Sequence record: NC_049936.1
DNA length: 18,286 nt
DNA from: Enterococcus phage vB_EfaP_Efmus3
Strand: one strand, 5' to 3'
Shown piece by piece: positions 1 to 18,286 of this stretch; position 1 is the first letter of the stretch; each line of letters opens with the position of its first letter. Under the pieces are notes generated by a model that did not search any database, was not told where the DNA came from, and worked only from the letters and a program-made list of their open reading frames with translations. Position numbers and translations under genes: made by a program.

Positions 1-24
1 CACAAAATGAGACCCCCCTCCCCA

Positions 25-101
25 AATTCTAATGTAATTCTAATAATTCTTAACAAATTCATTTTAATGTGATTCACATATAAATATCATTAAATTCTAA
101 T
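25..101 (+). repeat. Three copies of AATTCTAAT (25-33, 37-45, 93-101) upstream of P1; a fourth copy at 6169-6177 upstream of P2
   Basis: Exact 9-mers. The promoter-proximal copy sits exactly 10 bp 5' of the -35 in both promoter modules. Confidence 0.5.
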
Positions 102-111
102 CAAACTTTAA

Positions 112-140
112 TTGACAATTAGATATATATATTGTATACT
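112..140 (+). promoter_or_regulatory. Early promoter P1: -35 TTGACA (112-117), 17-bp spacer, -10 TATACT (135-140)
   Basis: Near-consensus sigma-A hexamers with exact 17-bp spacing, read directly. Followed by SD AAAGGAGG (155-162) and ATG at 171. The whole 92-170 module recurs at 6168-6246. Confidence 0.6.
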
Positions 141-170
141 TAATTCATAAAGTTAAAGGAGGAAACAAAC

Positions 171-329
171 ATGAAAGTTAGAATTATCAAACCAACACAA
201 GAAGATTTAAAGAAAGGAATTGCATACGGCACAGAATTAGAAATCGTTAGCACAAATTTCGGTTTTATCAACGTTAAGTATTTTGAGGAAGTAGTTCCTT
301 TTCTACCATACCAAATCGAATACATTTAA
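171..329 (+). CDS. Hypothetical small early protein (52 aa)
   Basis: ATG 171 lies 8 nt after SD AAAGGAGG and directly downstream of P1. Runs to TAA 327-329. Preferred over the antisense 140..325 track ORF, which has no SD. Confidence 0.5.
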   Translation: MKVRIIKPTQEDLKKGIAYGTELEIVSTNFGFINVKYFEEVVPFLPYQIEYI

Positions 330-6790: not shown

Positions 6791-7024
6791 ATGGAATTAA
6801 CAAGAGAAGAATTTTTAAATGAATATTGGAGAGCAGTCAAACAAATTTGTAAAGAAATGGATGTACCTTTCAATAAAGCTGTTGGAAATAACGCTTATCT
6901 ATGTGAAAAAGGTGTGTATAATCCTACGGTTATCAAAGAAAGACAAATAGCTAAAAACTTAGGGATAAGTTACACAATTTTAATTGATTATTTATATTAT
7001 TTTTTACCGGAGGGTTTGCAATGA
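6791..7024 (+). CDS. Small helix-turn-helix protein (77 aa), candidate transcriptional regulator
   Basis: SD GGAGGGG. The C-terminal stretch RQIAKNLGISYTILIDYL has an HTH-like character. Sits at the early/late boundary. Confidence 0.5.
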   Translation: MELTREEFLNEYWRAVKQICKEMDVPFNKAVGNNAYLCEKGVYNPTVIKERQIAKNLGISYTILIDYLYYFLPEGLQ

Positions 7025-7524
7025 ATGTTATCGAATGGAGAATTATACCAGACTTCCCTAACTATGCCGTTAATATTAAAGGTGAGATATTAAATATTAA
7101 AACACATCGAAAATTAAAAGAACGTTCACACAACCAAGGGTATAAAAAAGTAATGTTATCAAACAATGGAAAAACAAAACAATTCTATATCCATCGTTTG
7201 GTAGCTCAAGCCTTTATCCCTAACCCAGCTAATTTAGAATATGTAAATCATATTGACGAAAATAAAGACAACAACCACGTATCTAACCTTGAATGGATTT
7301 CAGCTAGAAATAACGTTATTTACTCCATATCTAACGTATACGAAGCTTTGAGACCTGACGGGTATAAAGTATCATTCTTAGGACATGGTGAACTTAAAAC
7401 AGCTGGATTTAACCCAAAACTAGTTGAATGTGTGGCAAACAACGAAAAATTAGAGTATCGTGGATACCAATGGCTTAAAGTTGGTACTAAAGCAGAAATA
7501 AGAAAGGGTGTTGCTAATGCCTAG
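7021..7524 (+). CDS. HNH homing endonuclease (NUMOD4-like N-terminus + HNH_3)
   Basis: WRIIPDFPNYAVNIKGEILN…GYKKVML…IHRLVAQAFIPNP…VNHIDENKDNNHVSNLEWIS matches the I-HmuI-type HNH family signature. Overlaps its neighbours (ATGA upstream, 8 nt downstream). Confidence 0.8.
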   Translation: MNVIEWRIIPDFPNYAVNIKGEILNIKTHRKLKERSHNQGYKKVMLSNNGKTKQFYIHRLVAQAFIPNPANLEYVNHIDENKDNNHVSNLEWISARNNVIYSISNVYEALRPDGYKVSFLGHGELKTAGFNPKLVECVANNEKLEYRGYQWLKVGTKAEIRKGVANA

Positions 7525-8935
7525 CTACAAAACTTATACAACTGAACAGTATCAAGCATTTCTAAGTCAACCATTCGGATATGACTTCGGTGTTAGCGAT
7601 GAAACAATTGCACAGTGGTTTATGATTCAGCCGGGAGCTAGACCTGTTATAAATTCATACGGTGTAACAAAAGCAAATTTACTTTCTGATTATATCCCAA
7701 AATTGAAACAAGAGTTTGGTGGTTCGTTAGTATTTCTAATGACCACCGTTTCCGAAGGTGGTGGAGCTGGTAACTGGGTAAACCATTACATGAGTGATAC
7801 AAGTAATACTGGTATGGGGTGTATGATAGATGATATTGCTTATATAAAAACAACATTTGACCGACATTTTCCTCCTGCAATTAGTGCACCAGAAGTTGGT
7901 GGAGCCTACACAGAAGATGAGGATGGTTTGACTATGAAAGTGTATAATGCTGTCCCTGATGGTTCTATAGGGTCTTACTTCATACCGTCTACAATGGCTG
8001 GTAATGCGTGGATTTTTGGATCACAATGGTGTTTAGCTAATCAAGGAGCCGCTCCTCCAGCTGTATATTTTGGTAATCCATACGATCAATTAATTGATAT
8101 TATAAAATCTTTTGGAGCTGATCCTTTTGAAGAAGGGAGTACGGCAAAACCTAACCCAGATACACCGAAAGGAGACCCTAACGAGTCAGGAAATAAACCA
8201 AAACCAAAACCAGACATTCAGAAAGCTATTGATAAAATACTAGATGAAATAAATAAAGCTTTAGATAATCAAACAATACAAGGAAGCCCATTACTAAGTT
8301 ATAATGACGACTTGACAATAGAAAGAACTTTTAACAATAGTTACAAGATTAGTTACACATCTTCATTTAAGAAGAAGTTATCTGATATGTTGAATGCTAG
8401 CGACTTGGGTTTAATTACTGATGATGGAGCTCAAACGAATCCTCCGAAAGAAGATCCAAAACCCCCAAGCATTGATGCTGGTAAAGAGTCAAAAACAATG
8501 AAAAAAATATATGACTGGTGTAATGAAAATCAAGGTCAAGCATTCGACACTGATGGCTATTATGGGGCTCAATGTGTTGATTTAATTAGCTGGATAAATA
8601 CGAAAGTTTTTGGTTTAGGTTTAGATACATCGGGAGATTATGCTAAGAACATTTGGAATAACCCAGTGCCAGCTGGTTGGTATAAAGTAAATGGTAACCC
8701 TAACGATGATAATGCCTCTCGTGAGATATGGAACACACTACCTAATGGTGCTATCGTTTGGTGGACCAATTCAGGAGCGGGACACGTTGGAATTAAAGCT
8801 GGCGATTTTGCAACAACCTTACAACAAAATTGGACTTCTCACGGTTTAGGAGGTCCGATCGTTTTAGCGGATTGTGCCAGCTGGATGGCAGCATCAAATA
8901 GCGGTTTTTTAGGTGCTTGGGTTACAGATAATTAA
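7517..8935 (+). CDS. Virion-associated peptidoglycan hydrolase (tail lysin) with C-terminal CHAP domain (472 aa)
   Basis: C-terminal YDWCNENQGQAFDTDGYYGAQCVDLISWIN…GHVGI is a CHAP Cys/His signature. N-terminal domain is unknown but looks lysozyme-like. Central Pro/Lys linker KPNPDTPKGDPNESGNKPKPKPD. ATG 7517 follows SD AAAGGGTG. Confidence 0.8.
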   Translation: MPSYKTYTTEQYQAFLSQPFGYDFGVSDETIAQWFMIQPGARPVINSYGVTKANLLSDYIPKLKQEFGGSLVFLMTTVSEGGGAGNWVNHYMSDTSNTGMGCMIDDIAYIKTTFDRHFPPAISAPEVGGAYTEDEDGLTMKVYNAVPDGSIGSYFIPSTMAGNAWIFGSQWCLANQGAAPPAVYFGNPYDQLIDIIKSFGADPFEEGSTAKPNPDTPKGDPNESGNKPKPKPDIQKAIDKILDEINKALDNQTIQGSPLLSYNDDLTIERTFNNSYKISYTSSFKKKLSDMLNASDLGLITDDGAQTNPPKEDPKPPSIDAGKESKTMKKIYDWCNENQGQAFDTDGYYGAQCVDLISWINTKVFGLGLDTSGDYAKNIWNNPVPAGWYKVNGNPNDDNASREIWNTLPNGAIVWWTNSGAGHVGIKAGDFATTLQQNWTSHGLGGPIVLADCASWMAASNSGFLGAWVTDN

Positions 8936-10178: not shown

Positions 10179-10571
10179 TTATTCACCTCCTTTCGGGTTG
10201 TTATCGTAATCATTTTGGACCTTTTCTAAAGCTGATTTTAACCACTTAGGTAAAGTAACACCCATCTCTGTGAGGTTTTCAAAAATTGAAATGCCGTAAG
10301 TAGCCCCGAAAAAGAATAATAAACTATAACCTAAAAAGTCAACTCCTCCTAAGTGACAAAAAATACTTGTCACAACAATCGTTGCAAATACCGACATGTG
10401 TTTCATCATACCAGCTAGACCAATAGTAGAGTTAGCTTTCTTCGTTACAAATGCTTTTGTATAACCAGTAAACATATCTCCTAAAATTAAGGTGCTGATT
10501 ACTAAAAACCAATAATCATGAGCTAAAAAGTTAATAGCATCTAGTAAAGTAATAAATGTAATTTGTTGCAT
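10179..10571 (-). CDS. Holin (130 aa, 3-4 TM segments, charged C-terminus)
   Basis: Hydrophobic helices and a hydrophilic C-terminal tail (KVQNDYDNNPKGGE). Directly upstream of the endolysin, and TAATG-coupled to the tail-knob gene. Confidence 0.75.
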   Translation of the reverse strand: MQQITFITLLDAINFLAHDYWFLVISTLILGDMFTGYTKAFVTKKANSTIGLAGMMKHMSVFATIVVTSIFCHLGGVDFLGYSLLFFFGATYGISIFENLTEMGVTLPKWLKSALEKVQNDYDNNPKGGE

Positions 10572-12325
10572 TAAACGTTTCTCCTTTTGTTTTCTAGTGG
10601 GTTTTGTGTAAATGGGTTCTGTTTATTGTTAAAATGCCAAAAACGAACACCAGCCATTAATAAAGCTTTTAATTGTTCCATGTATTGCGTAGGGATACCG
10701 TTAATTTTAAACTGACCATCAATTTGTAAATAGTTACAGATCGTCATTGAGTGAATATCCTCTACAACCCCTTTTTCATTAAATTCAAACCCCATCATAC
10801 TGTAATATTTTCTTATTTTTTCAACTTCTGCTTCACTAGGGGCCGAAAACTTGACGGTAAAACCAAAAATATCGTTTTTAATATTAAAGGCTTGACCTCC
10901 GTTACTTGTTGTTAAACTTGGTGAGCTTAGAGCTAAGTCAGCAAATTCAGCGCGTTGTTTGCGGTAGTATTCCGTATCACTGGCAATTTTACTACCAATG
11001 TTAGTTAGTGATAAACCACCACCCATAAGCGAATAAGCATCAGTGAATATATTAGTAGCTTTTTCTAATATAGATTGGTTAGGGTCTGCTAAGTTCTTGC
11101 CAATGTTTTTGACACGACCTGTAGTCGTTTGTGAGTTGTTATAGGCTATTGTATTAGCGTTGTTAGCAAGTGATAATTTATAATTGTCAATTAACAATGG
11201 AACTTGTGTGAAGTTGTTATAAGTTAATGAATTATTTAAGAATGTTCCAGTTGGAACACCTCTTTCTTCTTCACTGCTAGCTTGCCAATATCTTACAAAA
11301 ATCCTCATTTCATTATGAAAACCAATCGATTGGCGCATTCCAAATTGAAGCCCCGCATCTGGTATTTGTGCTAAGTCTAAGTTTAAAGATTCACCCGCCC
11401 AGTTATAAACCTCACAGGTGTAATATCCGGCTCTAAAAATGTGTTCTTCATTAGATGGAACTTTCAAAACATACATCAAATCTGATTTTCTGGTGTTCAT
11501 AGAAATTAAATTCCCCTCCATCGACAAGCCACCGTCTGGCAGTTGATAAAGAGTGTCAAAATCTTCGTTGTTTAGTTTTACTTTTAACAATTTAGTTAAG
11601 TCAATCATTTCTTTAGGTAATAAAGTAATATCACTAATGTTTTGACCAATCCATGGATAATCTCTCAAAGCAATAGAAAATTTTTGGAAGTTTTTAGATT
11701 CTACCATATACAAACCTACGGGGCTGACAATTTTATCATATGAACCTCCTTTTGGTAATTTAATAATTGGTTTTTCTAAACTACCAAAGTCAGCCGATAA
11801 GTCAACACTAGAACGAATAAGAACAACCAAATCTTTAAATTTATAGTTTTTTTGATATACATACTGTTTAGATGTTGCTTGCAAAATATCACTATTTGTT
11901 TTAATTTCTATTAAACGTCTTTGATACATATTTTCTGGTAAATGTTGACGGTTAACCGTAACATTCGAAATACCAGTTAATACTTTTCCTTGTGTAAAGG
12001 TCATTAAAACGTCAACAACAACTTGAAACATTGTTACTTTTTCATTTGCATATTGAGTGGTCATTACATAGAAATAGTAGTCTTTTCCAGTGAAACCATC
12101 TTTAAAGTGGCCGTAATTGATACCGTCACAATCCTCATAAGGAATAGGCAAACGCAAAGTAAGCCTATCCTTTACAAGATTGAAATCACCTTCAAAAGAT
12201 ACTTTTTTAAAACCACTCGTGATAAAGAAATAACGTTCTCTTTCTTCGGTTGTGTCAAAGTGAATCGTTTCATTTAACGTTGTCATTGGTGTGTCGTAAA
12301 ATAAAGTAATCTTTGAAAGTTTCAT
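10571..12325 (-). CDS. Tail knob (distal tail) protein, phi29 gp9-like (584 aa)
   Basis: The N-terminal motifs (HFDTTEERERYFF; YGHF…KDYYFYVMTTQYANEKVTMFQVVVDVLMTF) resemble the phi29 gp9 N-terminus as I recall it. Size is within ~15 aa of gp9 (599 aa). Confidence 0.65.
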   Translation of the reverse strand: MKLSKITLFYDTPMTTLNETIHFDTTEERERYFFITSGFKKVSFEGDFNLVKDRLTLRLPIPYEDCDGINYGHFKDGFTGKDYYFYVMTTQYANEKVTMFQVVVDVLMTFTQGKVLTGISNVTVNRQHLPENMYQRRLIEIKTNSDILQATSKQYVYQKNYKFKDLVVLIRSSVDLSADFGSLEKPIIKLPKGGSYDKIVSPVGLYMVESKNFQKFSIALRDYPWIGQNISDITLLPKEMIDLTKLLKVKLNNEDFDTLYQLPDGGLSMEGNLISMNTRKSDLMYVLKVPSNEEHIFRAGYYTCEVYNWAGESLNLDLAQIPDAGLQFGMRQSIGFHNEMRIFVRYWQASSEEERGVPTGTFLNNSLTYNNFTQVPLLIDNYKLSLANNANTIAYNNSQTTTGRVKNIGKNLADPNQSILEKATNIFTDAYSLMGGGLSLTNIGSKIASDTEYYRKQRAEFADLALSSPSLTTSNGGQAFNIKNDIFGFTVKFSAPSEAEVEKIRKYYSMMGFEFNEKGVVEDIHSMTICNYLQIDGQFKINGIPTQYMEQLKALLMAGVRFWHFNNKQNPFTQNPLENKRRNV

Positions 12326-12326
12326 A

Positions 12327-13115
12327 TTAGAAAATCCCCTCTATCCATTTAATTTTTACACCTGCATCGTTATTAATAGCAGTCCAACCGCTTTCACCAC
12401 CTGTAACACTCTTACACGCGGTAAACGTTAGTTTGGTGTGCGTACTATCACCTGTGAAACGACATTCACCCATCGTTATTGTTTTATCTGATGGATCGTT
12501 TACTAAGTTAGACCATTGAAAAGTTGGGTTGTCTACAGATTCAACAAGCTTTACCTCGTTTGTATAATCTGATGCGATTCCGAATTTTAGTTGTCTAAAC
12601 CGTCTAGTTGATACTTTTAAAGGAATAACATCACCAACAGCAAAAGTACCCTCAGCAATTTTTGTTGTTTGGTCAATTCGTTTCCACTCTTTAGAGTTAT
12701 TATTCCCTCCACCACCTTTAGCGGATGAATGAATATAGTAAATAGAACCGTTGTTCGTTTCAACTAAGAAATATGTTTTGCGATTGGCGTGCTCACCTGT
12801 AACATATAACTCGCATAGATATCCGTAATCTGTAAAAATATCTGGTAGTGGAACGTCACGCCAACCACCATTACCACCAAACACAGTAGCATATTTTCCG
12901 AATGGTACATCCCAAAATGATGGGTATTTTACATCCAAATAGTTATCTTTTAATAAATGCCCTCTAGCTTGTTGTAAGTCTGTGGGGGCTATAAAACCCG
13001 GAGTCATTTCTGTTGCTAAAGCATGGTTTTGATTTTCGTCTCCATCATTATGACTAGCCCATTGTTCTAATAACCACTCAACCGCTTCAGGTGTTTTCAT
13101 ATCTTTTAAATCCAT
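12327..13115 (-). CDS. Structural protein of unknown role (262 aa); candidate receptor-binding or head-fibre protein
   Basis: SD TAGGAGGAG. Lies between tail protein genes. Has a Gly-rich loop GGGGNNNSKEWK. No domain recognised. Confidence 0.45.
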   Translation of the reverse strand: MDLKDMKTPEAVEWLLEQWASHNDGDENQNHALATEMTPGFIAPTDLQQARGHLLKDNYLDVKYPSFWDVPFGKYATVFGGNGGWRDVPLPDIFTDYGYLCELYVTGEHANRKTYFLVETNNGSIYYIHSSAKGGGGNNNSKEWKRIDQTTKIAEGTFAVGDVIPLKVSTRRFRQLKFGIASDYTNEVKLVESVDNPTFQWSNLVNDPSDKTITMGECRFTGDSTHTKLTFTACKSVTGGESGWTAINNDAGVKIKWIEGIF

Positions 13116-13126
13116 TTTATCTCCTC

Positions 13127-14692
13127 CTAGTAAGTATAATTAACAAAGTCAGTTCCGTTACCAACACCACGACAAATTACTTTTCTAGCAGTTGTATCTA
13201 CTTCAACCCCGTAGAAACTTCCTTCTTTATCAGTACCTTTTTGCCATGGGTCTTTTTTACCAAAAGCATTAATGAAAGCAATCATTTTATATTTGCGTGT
13301 TTCAGTAATTGCATAATCAATTTCAGAATGAACGTGACCTACAAATACACCAACCATATTTCCTGTACCGCGTGTTGCATTGTTAAACTTGATTTCTGGA
13401 TTATTTGTATTGTCAAGACCAACTAAAGTATTTGCTTGGATAGTGTAGTCTGTCCCATCTATAAAAGCATTTAGTGCTTCCTCTACGTTAATCCCGTTTA
13501 GCATTGTTCCTAAACCAGTTTCAGCTGTGATAGGTCTGTGAGCTAACAAGATGAAATGTTCATCAGATTTAATAGTGTTCATGAATTGACTTAATGCTAG
13601 CAATTGAGCACTTGAAATAGCTCCTCCTTGATAAATATGGTCTGTTTCTTTAAAACTACCGTCAGCGTTCGTTTGCTCACTGAAATCATCTGTGTATAAG
13701 TAGAACATAGCGATTTTTTTATCAGGGAATCGAATACCACCGTATAATTTAGAGCCCATTGTTTTCTCAATTTCTGCCTTACTTAAAACCATTTGGCTAC
13801 CATGTCCCGGGGTCCAGTTATATGGTACCCCTCCTTTGTCATGGTTACCGACAACCCCGATCTTAGGAGTTTTACCATATCTTAAAGCAGTATTTGCAAA
13901 ACGTAACATATTCTTTTGAGCTGAATACTTAACATCAGAAGGGAGTTGAGTGTCTAAACCATCACCAATTGAACCACTATTGCTGTCTACGTTATCCCCG
14001 TTGTGTACTGCTACATCGCAAACATTTTCTAATCGTTTGAATTGTTTAAGTACTCGGAAATTGTTATACTTTTGAACAAAGTTGTTTTCTGGGTATAAAT
14101 GTAGATCTGTAATTAACGCTAGGTTAAACTTAGCAGGGTCTACACTGTTAATTGCTACATTAATGTTTCGATATTCTACTGGAACTTTACTTGTAATTTG
14201 TTCTGTGTCAACGTCAACTGTTACAATAGTACCGTCTGGGTCTATATTGTCAACACGATCGTTTAAGTCGGCTATTTTCCTATCTAACTCTTTCATAACT
14301 GCTTCTAAGTCTTTTGAATACAATCCGTCAGGTAAAGCCTTGATTGCGTTTGTAAGCTCTCTTACCTGTGGCTGACGACCCATAGAAAGTAGTTGAGTAT
14401 ATTCTATGTTAGAACTTAATAAAACATCTGCTTTTAACTTAATCACCTGTTCAATGTTGTCTTCAGGGTTTAAACCATGTTTCCACTCTCCAAGTTTTGT
14501 TAAATCAACTGTGTTTGTATCCTCAACTTCAAGTTCTCGCTTGTCAAGTTTTTCTAACAATTTGACAAAATTATCTAATTGTTCGTTTAAACTAGCTAGG
14601 TATTTATAGTAAGATTCGCTGTTGGTGTTAAAATCACCGTGTTGGTATCTTGGATAAATACCGCTAGAATGTGGGAAATTTGTAAAATGCAT
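13127..14692 (-). CDS. Tail fibre/appendage-like protein with N-terminal coiled coil and C-terminal calcineurin-like metallophosphoesterase domain (521 aa)
   Basis: All five phosphoesterase motifs are present in order: ITDLH, HNGDNVD, VGNHD, LAHRP, VGHVH. Start placed at ATG 14692 (SD AAAGGAGAG); the track's TTG at 14728 is rejected. Confidence 0.7.
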   Translation of the reverse strand: MHFTNFPHSSGIYPRYQHGDFNTNSESYYKYLASLNEQLDNFVKLLEKLDKRELEVEDTNTVDLTKLGEWKHGLNPEDNIEQVIKLKADVLLSSNIEYTQLLSMGRQPQVRELTNAIKALPDGLYSKDLEAVMKELDRKIADLNDRVDNIDPDGTIVTVDVDTEQITSKVPVEYRNINVAINSVDPAKFNLALITDLHLYPENNFVQKYNNFRVLKQFKRLENVCDVAVHNGDNVDSNSGSIGDGLDTQLPSDVKYSAQKNMLRFANTALRYGKTPKIGVVGNHDKGGVPYNWTPGHGSQMVLSKAEIEKTMGSKLYGGIRFPDKKIAMFYLYTDDFSEQTNADGSFKETDHIYQGGAISSAQLLALSQFMNTIKSDEHFILLAHRPITAETGLGTMLNGINVEEALNAFIDGTDYTIQANTLVGLDNTNNPEIKFNNATRGTGNMVGVFVGHVHSEIDYAITETRKYKMIAFINAFGKKDPWQKGTDKEGSFYGVEVDTTARKVICRGVGNGTDFVNYTY

Positions 14693-14706
14693 ATTTTTTC
14701 TCTCCT

Positions 14707-15372
14707 TTACCATATTTGTAAGAAACAACGTCTATCATATTCTTTTAAATATCTATCCCATGCTCCTGAAAAAGCTTTTAAAGCTCCGGTGTCATAACTT
14801 TTACTGTTAGTGATTGTTGTTTGTTCATTGTTATTTGTTGACTTGTCTAAAGACTTAGCAATGTTGTTTTCGTCACCATAATCCATTTCAAAAGAATTTA
14901 AGTCTAGATTAATTTTATCTTGAGGTAAGGTGCTTCTTAAATCTCTATTTTCTGATAAACTTTCGTTACTTCCTAGACCTTTAGTGGTAGATTCTGTTTC
15001 GTTATTGTGAATGATGAAGTTTTCGTAATTCTTATAGAGTATCTCTATTTCTTGTTCGTATGATAATGAAGTGTAAACAACTTGAGATGCGAAGTCTTCA
15101 ACAGTTTGTCTACCAATCTGCCTGTTTAAAAACTTATTGATAAACATTTTCTTAATGAATTTGTCAACTTCTGGAGTTGGAAAAGTGTAACCTGCAAAGA
15201 ACACATCTGTAGTGATTTTTTCTACATCTTCATCATATCGCATTGCTTTTTGAATGAATCGGAATTTGTTGTTATCTCCTGTATACTCGCCGTTGTTGAA
15301 AAACTCATTCTTCCCCTGTTTCAAGAGTTCCGTTTGTAGGATATCCATTAGGGAGATTGTTATTAGACCCAT
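14707..15372 (-). CDS. Lower collar-like protein (221 aa)
   Basis: Sits between the portal and tail genes. ATG 15372 is preceded by AGGTGGTGA; the track start at 15387 is a GTG. Overlaps the portal 3' end by 68 nt. Confidence 0.4.
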   Translation of the reverse strand: MGLITISLMDILQTELLKQGKNEFFNNGEYTGDNNKFRFIQKAMRYDEDVEKITTDVFFAGYTFPTPEVDKFIKKMFINKFLNRQIGRQTVEDFASQVVYTSLSYEQEIEILYKNYENFIIHNNETESTTKGLGSNESLSENRDLRSTLPQDKINLDLNSFEMDYGDENNIAKSLDKSTNNNEQTTITNSKSYDTGALKAFSGAWDRYLKEYDRRCFLQIW

Positions 15373-16339
15373 TTTGTTGTTCACCACCTAACTTTTCATT
15401 TAAAATAGTAAGTTTTGTTACCATTTTATCATTCATAACTGGATAAACTTTAGCGCCATAACGTTTATTTAATTTATCCAAACCGTTTTTACGTGATTCA
15501 ATGTTAACGTTACCGTTAGCTGTCTGATAAGCTTCACCCGAATTGCTTTCACTTTCTGTAACACCACTTTCTTTATCAACTCCTAATCCACTTAAACCAA
15601 TCATAGAATTAAGCTCGTTTAAGGCGTTTGAGTATTCTCTTTTTAGTTCAGTCATTAGAGTTGAAATGTTTGAACCGTCGAACGTTTGAATGTGTTCGTC
15701 AGGATCGAAAGCACCTGTAATGTTAACGTAAGGTGCACCGTTGTATAGTGATTCAACGATTTGCTCAGCTGTTTGATCGTTTGGTTCACCTATAATGAAT
15801 GTTGTGATTTTAGATTGCATTTTTAAACTATAACGAGAACAAACAATTTCAGCAAGCTCCATTGCGTAGTGTTTAACAATTTCATAATCACTTGTGTAAT
15901 TCAGAATTTTGTTTCTTAGAACAATAAAGTTACCAGTTTGACAATCGTCAATTTCTGTGATTTCTTTCATGATTGGTAATCGATGTTCTTCTGATACTAA
16001 CCACTGAATATCTCTACCGTCTAAAGGGTCAGAAATTACAAAATTTGCTGGATCTGATACCGTTAATTTATTTGTTGAAATACCGAGTAAACGAATAGCA
16101 CCGCTTCTTGTTTCACCGATAATACAATCATAACCACCTCTTAAGGCTACTTCTACTTTAAGCCAGTCAACCGCTAGCTTTTTGTCGCTTAAATCTACAT
16201 AGGTGATAATAGTAGGTAGAATCTCCAAGTAACGATTGTAGAGAATACGGGCGAACCTATCTCTATGAGTGGTCACCCGTTCTGCTACTTTTAACCGTAA
16301 CTCTGATTCCAACCCGTCGTTAAATTGAGGGTTGAACAT
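15305..16339 (-). CDS. Portal / upper collar (connector) protein (344 aa)
   Basis: Immediately downstream of the MCP gene and about the size of phi29 gp10 or P68 portal. SD AAGGAGGT. Low-complexity N/G/Q-rich C-terminus. Confidence 0.5.
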   Translation of the reverse strand: MFNPQFNDGLESELRLKVAERVTTHRDRFARILYNRYLEILPTIITYVDLSDKKLAVDWLKVEVALRGGYDCIIGETRSGAIRLLGISTNKLTVSDPANFVISDPLDGRDIQWLVSEEHRLPIMKEITEIDDCQTGNFIVLRNKILNYTSDYEIVKHYAMELAEIVCSRYSLKMQSKITTFIIGEPNDQTAEQIVESLYNGAPYVNITGAFDPDEHIQTFDGSNISTLMTELKREYSNALNELNSMIGLSGLGVDKESGVTESESNSGEAYQTANGNVNIESRKNGLDKLNKRYGAKVYPVMNDKMVTKLTILNEKLGGEQQNGSNNNLPNGYPTNGTLETGEE

Positions 16340-16354
16340 TTAAATACCTCCTTG

Positions 16355-17569
16355 TTATACAGTTCCTTCTGGTTCTGTTGGTGCAGTTTTACCTTTTACT
16401 AACACTTTGTTATAGAAAGGACTGATTGCTTTCATTGAGTAGTAGTGAATCCAGTAAGTCACTTCATCAAATTCAGGATTATAGAATGGTGCTTTTAACA
16501 TACCTTTAGTGAAACGATTGTAAACAATTGAGTCAACGTCTAAAATCATAGCCCATAAATCGTTAGAAGGTTTAATTTCTTCGAATTGGTCTGCTACGGT
16601 TGGTAGATATTTAGTAACGTCAAATGTTACTACAGACCCTTTAGGAATAGTAGAGTTTGTTGTTACTTGATAATCTCCTAACGCTTTAAGAGCTGTTACA
16701 ACAGCTTCTGTTACTGGGATATCAGCTTTCGCACGGAATACACCACCTAAGTCAGGAAATGCGATAATACGGTCTGAAAAGTCAATACCGTTAATGTGGT
16801 ATGTGTTAGCGAGTTTACTATCAAGTAAACGAGCTTTAATTTTTGTTGTTGTTAAAATCATCAATTTAGACATATCAGAAACTGTGGTATAACGACCGAT
16901 AGCTCCTCCTGAAGCTTTAGGTGCTTCGTTGTATTTGTCTTGGTTTGTTTGTAAGTTCATCATTTGTTCAGCGATTTGTTCAAACATACCGTCCAAGTTA
17001 TCTACTTCGATTTTTTGAGAATCAGATAATTGGTTCTCAGCATAGTCTACTAACATGCCTTTGATTTGACGTTCTTCGTCTACGTTAATATCAGAGATTT
17101 TCTTTTTGTAAACGGCAATAGCATATTTCACACCATCTTTTAATGTTAACCAGTTTTGACGAACATCGTTATTATTTAATGTAAATTTAACTTTACGAAC
17201 GATTCCGGGTCCATATAATTTAGTAATCATGTCAGGGTAGTTACGTTTCAACATTAACATTTCATCTTTCGATAAATCCATGTTTGTTGGAATAGTATCC
17301 TTAATGACATATTCCTCGCTGTATTGACCTACGAAGTCAACTTCTTGAGCTAACCAGTCAAATGAGTTACCTAAAGCTACTTGAATTAAACGAGTTTCAT
17401 TAAGCTTAGGGAATAAGAATTTGTTAATGAATGTTTCGAATTGCGTTCCTACTGAAGTCCAGTTTTGGCCTAAAGTCCAAGCTTCACCAAATTCATGGTT
17501 GTAGTTGTCTAAGGCAGTTTTTACGTCAGCCGCTAATAAGTTGGCAGCCACTTTCTTGGTTGTTGCCAT
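16355..17569 (-). CDS. Major capsid protein (404 aa)
   Basis: Largest head-region ORF. Follows the scaffold-like and micro-ORFs. SD AGGAGGAG. Size is like the Rountreeviridae MCP (~400 aa). Confidence 0.55.
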   Translation of the reverse strand: MATTKKVAANLLAADVKTALDNYNHEFGEAWTLGQNWTSVGTQFETFINKFLFPKLNETRLIQVALGNSFDWLAQEVDFVGQYSEEYVIKDTIPTNMDLSKDEMLMLKRNYPDMITKLYGPGIVRKVKFTLNNNDVRQNWLTLKDGVKYAIAVYKKKISDINVDEERQIKGMLVDYAENQLSDSQKIEVDNLDGMFEQIAEQMMNLQTNQDKYNEAPKASGGAIGRYTTVSDMSKLMILTTTKIKARLLDSKLANTYHINGIDFSDRIIAFPDLGGVFRAKADIPVTEAVVTALKALGDYQVTTNSTIPKGSVVTFDVTKYLPTVADQFEEIKPSNDLWAMILDVDSIVYNRFTKGMLKAPFYNPEFDEVTYWIHYYSMKAISPFYNKVLVKGKTAPTEPEGTV

Positions 17570-17835: not shown

Positions 17836-18177
17836 CTATAAGTCTAATAACTCAGCGATTTCTTCAGCATCTTCATCTACTGGTTCACCTTGTTCTGAAT
17901 CAGCTCCGATCACATCCATTTCCTCGCTTAAGTCTGTTTCTTCCTCTACAGTGTCAGCTGTTTGAATAGATGGTGTTGCTAGACTTTCAATAGATTGTTG
18001 AATAGCTTTCAATAAATCCATGACTTCTAGCATTGATGGTTCTGGTGTTACATCTGGAATATCAGAAGGTTCTTCTGTAGGTGTTTCGGCTACTGGCTCG
18101 ACAACAGTCTCTACAGCTTCATCTGGTTTTGCTTCTGTATCAACAACTTCCTCTTTGATTTCATCTGGTGTTGGCAT
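17836..18177 (-). CDS. Highly acidic scaffold / inner-core-like protein (113 aa)
   Basis: Asp/Glu/Pro-rich and first in the late operon, like phi29 gp7. Start at ATG 18177 (SD AGAGGTGA), not the SD-less ATG 18195. Confidence 0.5.
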   Translation of the reverse strand: MPTPDEIKEEVVDTEAKPDEAVETVVEPVAETPTEEPSDIPDVTPEPSMLEVMDLLKAIQQSIESLATPSIQTADTVEEETDLSEEMDVIGADSEQGEPVDEDAEEIAELLDL

Positions 18178-18207
18178 GTTTTCACCTCTTTTCATAATAT
18201 AGTAAAA

Positions 18208-18277
18208 TGGTCAAGGGTTTTATCTTCGTTAGTTAGTGTGAATCGTTTGTCACCTCTTTTGTCATTACCCTTGACCA
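18208..18277. repeat. Perfect 10-bp inverted repeat TGGTCAAGGG … CCCTTGACCA with 50-bp spacer, upstream of the late operon
   Basis: Read directly. Only a -10-like TATATT (18196-18201 on the minus strand) has no properly spaced -35. Candidate activator-binding site. Confidence 0.4.
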
Positions 18278-18286
18278 CTCTTATAT

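Follow-up and report, generated by a model that had tools for sequence, protein, structure and literature searches.

What does a calcineurin-like metallophosphoesterase (MPP) domain do in the late operon of a small phi29-like podophage? The question is raised by Enterococcus phage vB_EfaP_Efmus3 (NC_049936.1), a phage of Enterococcus faecalis assigned to Copernicusvirus (Rountreeviridae, Sarlesvirinae); the whole stretch of DNA analysed here, hereafter the window, measures 18,286 bp and is an essentially complete genome. On its minus strand, a gene at 13127..14692 encodes a protein of 521 residues plus stop, hereafter the MPP protein, with a full-length match to phrog_7158 (E 3e-151). By comparing sequences and predicted structures, we arrive at the proposal that the MPP protein is a collar fibre whose head hydrolyses phosphodiesters of Epa or of wall teichoic acid, a proposal to which we give an even chance.

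The metallophosphoesterase head and its predicted fold

The MPP domain makes up the distal head of the protein, residues 176-521 (13130..14167, minus strand), and a first, sequence-only reading of this DNA had described all five MPP motifs as intact in the C-terminal half. They are indeed all present and in canonical order: motif I, DLH (residues 196-198, with D196 and H198; 14099..14107); motif II, GDNVD (residues 232-236, with the bridging D233; 13985..13999); motif III, GNHD (residues 282-285, with the metal ligand N283 and the catalytic H284; 13838..13849); motif IV, H385 (13538..13540); and motif V, GHVH (residues 452-455, with H453 and H455; 13328..13339), all on the minus strand. Pfam Metallophos (PF00149) is matched at 33.7 bits, above its gathering cut-off of 21.5 (E 6.5e-8). 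The GDPD domain (PF03009) has no Pfam match in the protein at E <= 1, BppU_N (PF10651) was not found by the Pfam search, neither the PhoD family nor any other subfamily hidden Markov model matched, and an NCBIfam search returned nothing meaningful.

A HMMER search with residues 175-521 against 1.84 billion representative proteins (E <= 1e-3) recovered a clade of only 66 representatives. Conservation over these is 90% or higher for the seven metal ligands and for the catalytic His of GNHD, with H385 and H453 invariant in 66/66 and H455 at least 90% conserved; across podophage, siphophage and myophage members at 23-33% identity, the same ligands and catalytic His are invariant. The rest of the head is less constrained: relative to the Minhovirus orthologs it is 25-29% identical, as against 38-54% for the anchor and shaft, and 38 of the 46 substitutions that separate the protein from its closest database ortholog (P0001, 91% identical) fall within residues 321-480. 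The sequence comparisons support an MPP domain that is intact, with catalytic residues under strong purifying selection, and the metal site is probably catalytically competent. A frozen active site in a fast-changing surface would be expected for an enzyme tracking a variable host polymer; the variable stretch at 321-480 could have arisen as a mosaic by recombination, or it could form a cap over the active site that determines specificity. Within the head, residues ~321-455 (window 13328-13730, minus strand) span motifs IV-V and a ~30-residue insertion that is absent from the Minhovirus orthologs.

A monomeric AlphaFold2 model, built from 14 family sequences, is confident over most of residues 176-521 and predicts a double beta-sheet alpha/beta sandwich in which each of the five motifs lies at the C-terminal end of a beta-strand, with the ligands at the strand ends. 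The metallophosphoesterase fold anticipated from the motifs was recovered by Foldseek, which returned SMPDL3A/3B and acid sphingomyelinase at E about 1e-6. Fold-neighbour scores are led by the dimetal phosphatase 2nxf (22.6), Lmo2642 (20.6), the glycerophosphodiesterase GpdQ (18.8), SMPDL3B (18.5), acid sphingomyelinase (18.0), Rv0805 (17.7) and PhoD (17.2), with Mre11-type nucleases (12-14) and Ser/Thr protein phosphatases (~8) further off. As modelled, the fold neighbourhood of the head is that of phosphodiesterases, including the Bacillus subtilis teichoicase PhoD, which is reported to act endolytically (PMC7086022). Cellular MPPs such as PhoD (2yeq), Enterobacter GpdQ (2dxl), Rv0805 and acid sphingomyelinase/SMPDL3 share just 10-17% identity with the head; in contrast to them, the phage clade is small, and no cellular-type architecture was found among the domains identified in its 66 representatives.

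The gene itself is genuine. Its open reading frame (ORF) starts at ATG 14692 and stops at 13129-13127, and a ribosome-binding site read from the sequence, AAGGAG (14702..14707, minus strand), overlaps the end of the lower collar gene and leaves 9 nt between its GGAG core and that ATG; orthologs in related Copernicusvirus genomes have the same start and the same length of 521 residues. An alternative start at TTG 14728 was ruled out by the ribosome-binding site and the ortholog lengths, which favour ATG 14692. At the DNA level, the gene region is 87-89.5% identical to 23 Copernicusvirus records, including vB_EfaP_Ef7.2, IME195 and Idefix.

The N-terminal anchor and the probable place of the protein on the tail

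Where on the virion such a head would sit is indicated by the first 53 residues (14534..14692, minus strand), a putative virion anchor and start of a helical stem with the motif D-F-N-T-N-S-E-S-Y-Y-K-Y-L. Searched against all PDB sequences, a family profile gave as its sole significant matches the P68 tail fibre (6iab/6iac, E 4.5e-6) and Andhra gp15 (8egr, E 6.2e-6), in alignments that cover residues 5-53; pairwise BLASTP of the anchor to the P68 and Andhra fibres gave E 3e-5 and 2e-4, respectively. These anchors surfaced only with the family profile, a single-sequence phmmer search of the MPP protein against PDB sequences yielding no matches. Cryo-electron microscopy has placed the N-terminal loop of Andhra gp15 against the portal and the stem/collar protein, and the P68 and Andhra fibres, unrelated in all else, have only this loop in common (PMC9710869). 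Furthermore, the MPP gene occupies the slot directly after the lower collar gene that in Andhra and P68 holds the receptor-binding protein genes, and the protein shares with P68 gp17 (6iab, 6iac, 6q3g) and Andhra gp15 (8egr) the anchor consensus D-[FY]-N-T-N-S-x-S-Y-Y-x-Y-L, a helical stem and a modular build with an exchangeable distal domain. Sequence similarity to the two fibres ends at about residue 60, and the distal domain is a five-bladed propeller in P68 gp17 and a beta-helix in Andhra gp15, whereas in the window protein it is a metallophosphoesterase.

Between anchor and head lies a helical shaft, residues 54-175 (14168..14533, minus strand), delimited by tblastn and by AlphaFold helices; the monomer model predicts helices, at low confidence, at 25-51, 80-95, 108-116 and 129-150. 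Rountreeviridae tail fibres have a trimeric coiled-coil stem and stand as 12 trimers around the tail. As is usual in tail fibres, the parts of the MPP protein recur separately: by tblastn, residues ~6-143 are found without the head, and with a different C-terminus, in the 'tail fiber protein' of the Streptococcus podophages SG005 and pBovineB21, and residues ~135-521 turn up again in siphophages of Enterococcus, Lactobacillus and Latilactobacillus, in proteins of the tail module.

The siphophage homologs vB_ElaS_B1578 gp18 (Enterococcus), phig1e gpB (Lactobacillus) and the Silenus 'tail protein' are fusions of BppU_N and Metallophos, with heads 23-28% identical to that of the window protein and all catalytic residues kept; they dock on the siphophage baseplate by their N-terminal BppU_N (PF10651), whereas the window protein uses a Rountreeviridae collar anchor. 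At the siphophage loci, the homologous gene stands just after TMP-Dit-Tal (L005 7530-9275, L006 6422-8230 and L007 5512-7182); a literature search found no paper on the BppU_N-Metallophos architecture. In nearly all 66 clade representatives, the MPP domain forms the C-terminal end of a protein of 450-900 residues; 20 of the 66 contain BppU_N, and Prophage_tail, a carbohydrate-binding module and collagen repeats occur in one each. Every N-terminal partner domain that was identified in the clade was of a phage-tail kind, serving as virion anchor, and from these sequences the head clade looks specific to phage tails.

Because of the anchor homology to the P68 and Andhra fibres (E ~5e-6), the synteny and the BppU_N fusions of the siphophage homologs, we consider the MPP protein very likely to be a tail fibre or appendage by location, in agreement with its earlier description as a tail structural protein. 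The same observations bear on a competing idea, namely that the protein is a head-associated 'minor capsid protein' or else an intracellular, non-structural enzyme. 'Minor capsid protein' is what the GenBank records of IME195, N13, MDA1 and phig1e gpB call it, and in Semele, a Lactobacillus myophage of the Herelleviridae (139 kb), the MPP gene and its neighbour (L009 5539-7799) lie outside any obvious tail module. However, the label seems to go back to the annotation of phig1e, and a capsid or intracellular protein is hard to square with homology to structurally resolved tail fibres, with the gene slot after the lower collar, with the BppU_N and Prophage_tail fusions in the clade, or with an 18-kb genome in which no other tail-fibre candidate was seen; we regard it as highly improbable. 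In Semele, a second gene annotated 'putative phosphatase / phosphodiesterase' lies 3 kb upstream of the pair.

Receptor, candidate substrate and the partner protein

A tail fibre with a phosphodiesterase-like head invites the question of what it acts on, and a close relative of the window phage offers a lead. The ortholog of the MPP protein in Idefix is 93.9% identical, and adsorption of Idefix to E. faecalis V583 fails when epaX or ef2169 is mutated (PMC6356687). The Epa decorations that depend on epaX are teichoic acids of the ribitol-phosphate type with phosphodiester linkages; their repeats contain GalNAc-(1-5)-ribitol-1-phosphate and are phosphodiester-joined to the rhamnan (PMC7188991). 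A receptor-cleaving role is plausible because Idefix needs Epa decorations, and these are phosphodiester-linked. We tentatively favour an Epa or wall teichoic-acid phosphodiester as the substrate, at slightly under an even chance. Of what the sequence-only reading had proposed as substrate, a phosphodiester-linked teichoic acid as receptor held up through the Idefix relative, whereas classical wall teichoic acid gave way to the Epa decoration as the likelier form.

The MPP protein probably does not recognise this receptor unaided. Its gene is followed in 6 of the 7 loci examined by one for a conserved partner of ~255 residues. In the window, the partner has 262 residues (12327..13115, minus strand), is labelled 'minor head protein' by RefSeq/PHROGs (phrog_11663) and has no match in Pfam. 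Overlooked in the sequence-only reading, it modifies the placement first given for the MPP gene, between lower collar and tail knob: the gene does directly follow the lower collar, but the partner ORF intervenes before the tail knob. The partner is 37% identical (E 7e-36) to the product of the gene just downstream of the MPP gene in a Minhovirus contig and 30% identical (E 6e-28) to its counterpart in the siphophage vB_ElaS_B1578, annotated 'tail fiber protein', and by transitive BLAST it is connected with the counterparts in Latilactobacillus phage P1, Semele and phig1e (gpO). Most of the BppU-type arm proteins accordingly have a homologous partner, Silenus excepted, where the protein downstream of MPP has no significant similarity to it. 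In the Enterococcus podophages, partner and MPP protein occur together in 46/46 records. As homologous, co-occurring neighbours across phage groups, the two genes look like a two-gene host-recognition cassette. Phage-collection matches with a credible host label all have Lactobacillales hosts; 'Acinetobacter phage D2SVT' (PQ554527.1, 40 kb) shows the same identity and E-value as vB_ElaS_B1578 for the MPP protein and for the partner, and its 'Acinetobacter' host label seems to reflect contamination or a wrong assignment.

A weak model of the partner resembles receptor-binding tip domains (T7 gp17, phage K gp144 and the phi812 receptor-binding protein), and on this model it is a probable receptor-binding tip protein, perhaps the subunit that actually does the binding. 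Its label as a 'head protein' is probably an error, or else was carried over from phig1e gpO; the 'minor capsid protein' status of phig1e gpB and gpO is itself a GenBank label only. By gene position only, the partner could instead be a head fibre like Andhra gp13, a reading that found no support in its sequence: the partner has no significant similarity to Andhra gp13 or P68 gp14.

A partner of this kind would also suit a different account of the head, in which it is a binding module without turnover, its metals gripping polymer phosphates in a lectin-like manner, or a scaffold for the 262-residue protein. Among phage receptor-binding proteins, enzyme folds are often put to use for binding; the partner combines its receptor-binding-like fold with faster divergence between phage groups than the MPP protein (29.5% vs 51% identity to the Ef6.2 group); and in siphophages the MPP protein takes the place of the BppU 'arm', the part of TP901-1-type baseplates by which the receptor-binding protein is held. 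Yet the catalytic H284 and the metal ligands are kept at 90% or more in 66 divergent members, a conservation that makes catalysis hard to dispense with, and we judge a head without turnover to be improbable.

Under the hydrolytic reading that we prefer, residues 1-53 would attach to portal and lower collar, as expected by homology from P68 gp17 and Andhra gp15; residues 54-175 would form a helical shaft, probably trimeric; and residues 176-521 would form the distal head, a binuclear-metal phosphodiesterase. By cutting Epa decorations, the head would allow the virion to bind reversibly, process the layer and cross it towards the wall, where the tail-tip lysin, with glycoside hydrolase (GH) and CHAP domains (7508..8935), would act. 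The partner would probably supply or share receptor recognition, and the two genes would move jointly, as a cassette, among the podophages, siphophages and myophages of Lactobacillales.

Several points weigh against this proposal. In the predicted model, the loops bearing motifs II and III reach a predicted local distance difference test score of only ~50-56. The substrate is not predictable from the MPP fold, and the near folds include hydrolases of nucleotides, cyclic nucleotides, lipids and CDP-alcohols; an active tail-fibre phosphoesterase with some other substrate, be it lipoteichoic acid, phospholipid or glycolipid head groups (in the manner of a sphingomyelinase), extracellular DNA of biofilms, nucleotides, or a phosphomonoester or phospho-substituent of a wall polymer, is unlikely, though we would still reserve an appreciable share for it. 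Given the receptor-binding-like fold predicted for the partner, the dependence of adsorption on Epa could rest wholly on that protein. The Semele pair adjoins genes for a DNA-binding protein and a DNA polymerase rather than an obvious tail module. Finally, the Idefix paper assigns the ortholog no function and reports no virion proteomics (PMC6356687).

How would such an enzyme compare with the virion teichoic-acid depolymerases already described? The pre-neck appendage gp12 of phi29, a teichoic-acid-degrading tailspike according to the work cited as refs 38/39 in PMC6116005, resembles the MPP protein in its place on the virion and in the proposed task of processing a phosphodiester-linked receptor polymer of the wall. 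The distinction from the pectin-lyase fold of gp12, already drawn in the sequence-only reading, stands: gp12 is a pectin-lyase-type beta-helix without a metal centre, whereas the window head is predicted to be a binuclear-metal alpha/beta sandwich, for which fold searches returned no beta-helix (pectin-lyase fold) matches. The chemistry would therefore differ, and with no sequence or fold relationship between them the MPP protein is a possible functional analogue of gp12, not a member of its family. Likewise, GDPD enzymes of siphophage and myophage tail modules, such as the Lactobacillus phage Ld17 baseplate and those of enterococcal phages, are virion phosphodiesterases proposed to act on teichoic acid, and in phages of the same hosts GDPD is encoded near Tal/baseplate genes (PMC10194240); they belong to the TIM-barrel family PF03009, to which the MPP protein gives no match. 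It is conceivable, if somewhat short of an even chance, that the MPP clade, seemingly confined to phage tails, is a third distinct class of virion teichoic-acid depolymerase, after the gp12 beta-helix and GDPD. In enterococcal podophages it would cleave Epa decorations together with a ~255-residue receptor-binding partner, and throughout Lactobacillales the two genes would travel as a mobile cassette, joined to collar anchors in podophages, to BppU arms in siphophages and to proteins of myophages.

Recognition of the domain is in itself nothing new. Orthologs are already labelled 'putative calcineurin-like phosphoesterase' (vB_Efae230P-4), 'phosphohydrolase' (SHEF14), 'phosphodiesterase' (ZEF1, AE4_17) and 'putative collar fiber protein' (vB_Ela_1E1), the Idefix RefSeq entry reads 'Putative virion protein with calcineurin-like phosphoesterase domain', and in other records the protein is hypothetical or goes by 'minor capsid protein' or 'lower collar protein'. 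The earlier remark that a calcineurin-like fold on such a tail had not been described was thus overstated, the domain being already named in GenBank/RefSeq; on the role, we found no paper in the searchable literature. Among enterococcal tail lysins, a 2023 survey includes GDPD and pectinesterase domains but not the MPP protein (PMC10194240), and a 2024 review of phi29-like phages does not mention it. What appear to be new here are the homology of the anchor, by which the protein is assigned to the tail, the phage-tail-specific MPP clade with its invariant active site, and the conserved partner gene.

Epa decorations are essential in E. faecalis for gut colonisation, virulence and antibiotic tolerance, and form the receptor layer for many therapeutic phages. 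If the proposed activity is real, an Epa-stripping enzyme would serve as a tool for dissecting the structure of Epa, as a candidate protein against vancomycin-resistant enterococci, either anti-virulence or phage-adjuvant, and as a host-range marker for therapeutic Copernicusvirus and Minhovirus phages. With it, the few known receptor-processing tail enzymes would gain a new catalytic fold, and the exchange of the MPP gene and its neighbour, mislabelled 'minor capsid/head protein', between very different phage types would be explained.

The late operon and the remainder of the window

The MPP gene is embedded in a late operon on the minus strand that begins with the major capsid protein (17569..16355) and the portal or upper collar (16339..15305) and continues with the lower collar or adaptor (tail stem; 14707..15387), which matches phrog_3225 ('adaptor Ad4', E 1.6e-55) and phrog_5472 ('lower collar'). 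The lower collar is the presumed docking partner of the fibre, its gene lying upstream of the fibre gene, and the order lower collar to fibre matches Andhra and P68. Downstream of the MPP gene and its partner come the tail knob (12325..10571), a holin and then an amidase endolysin. From its listed GTG start, the lower collar ORF overlaps the portal ORF (15305-16339) by 83 nt; the Idefix lower collar is annotated as shorter, at 222 residues, and the true start in the window is therefore probably an internal codon.

Protein-primed Rountreeviridae genomes normally carry inverted terminal repeats. None were found at the ends of the window (1-200 vs 18087-18286, with 32/120 positions matching); probably, then, the window stops short of the true genome termini or is shifted against them.

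The gene for the tail-tip lysin, PlyCA_N (GH) plus CHAP, has a GTG start in the ORF list and lies on the plus, or early, strand, apart from the remaining structural genes; its start is overlapped by an ORF for an HNH endonuclease (7021..7524, plus strand).

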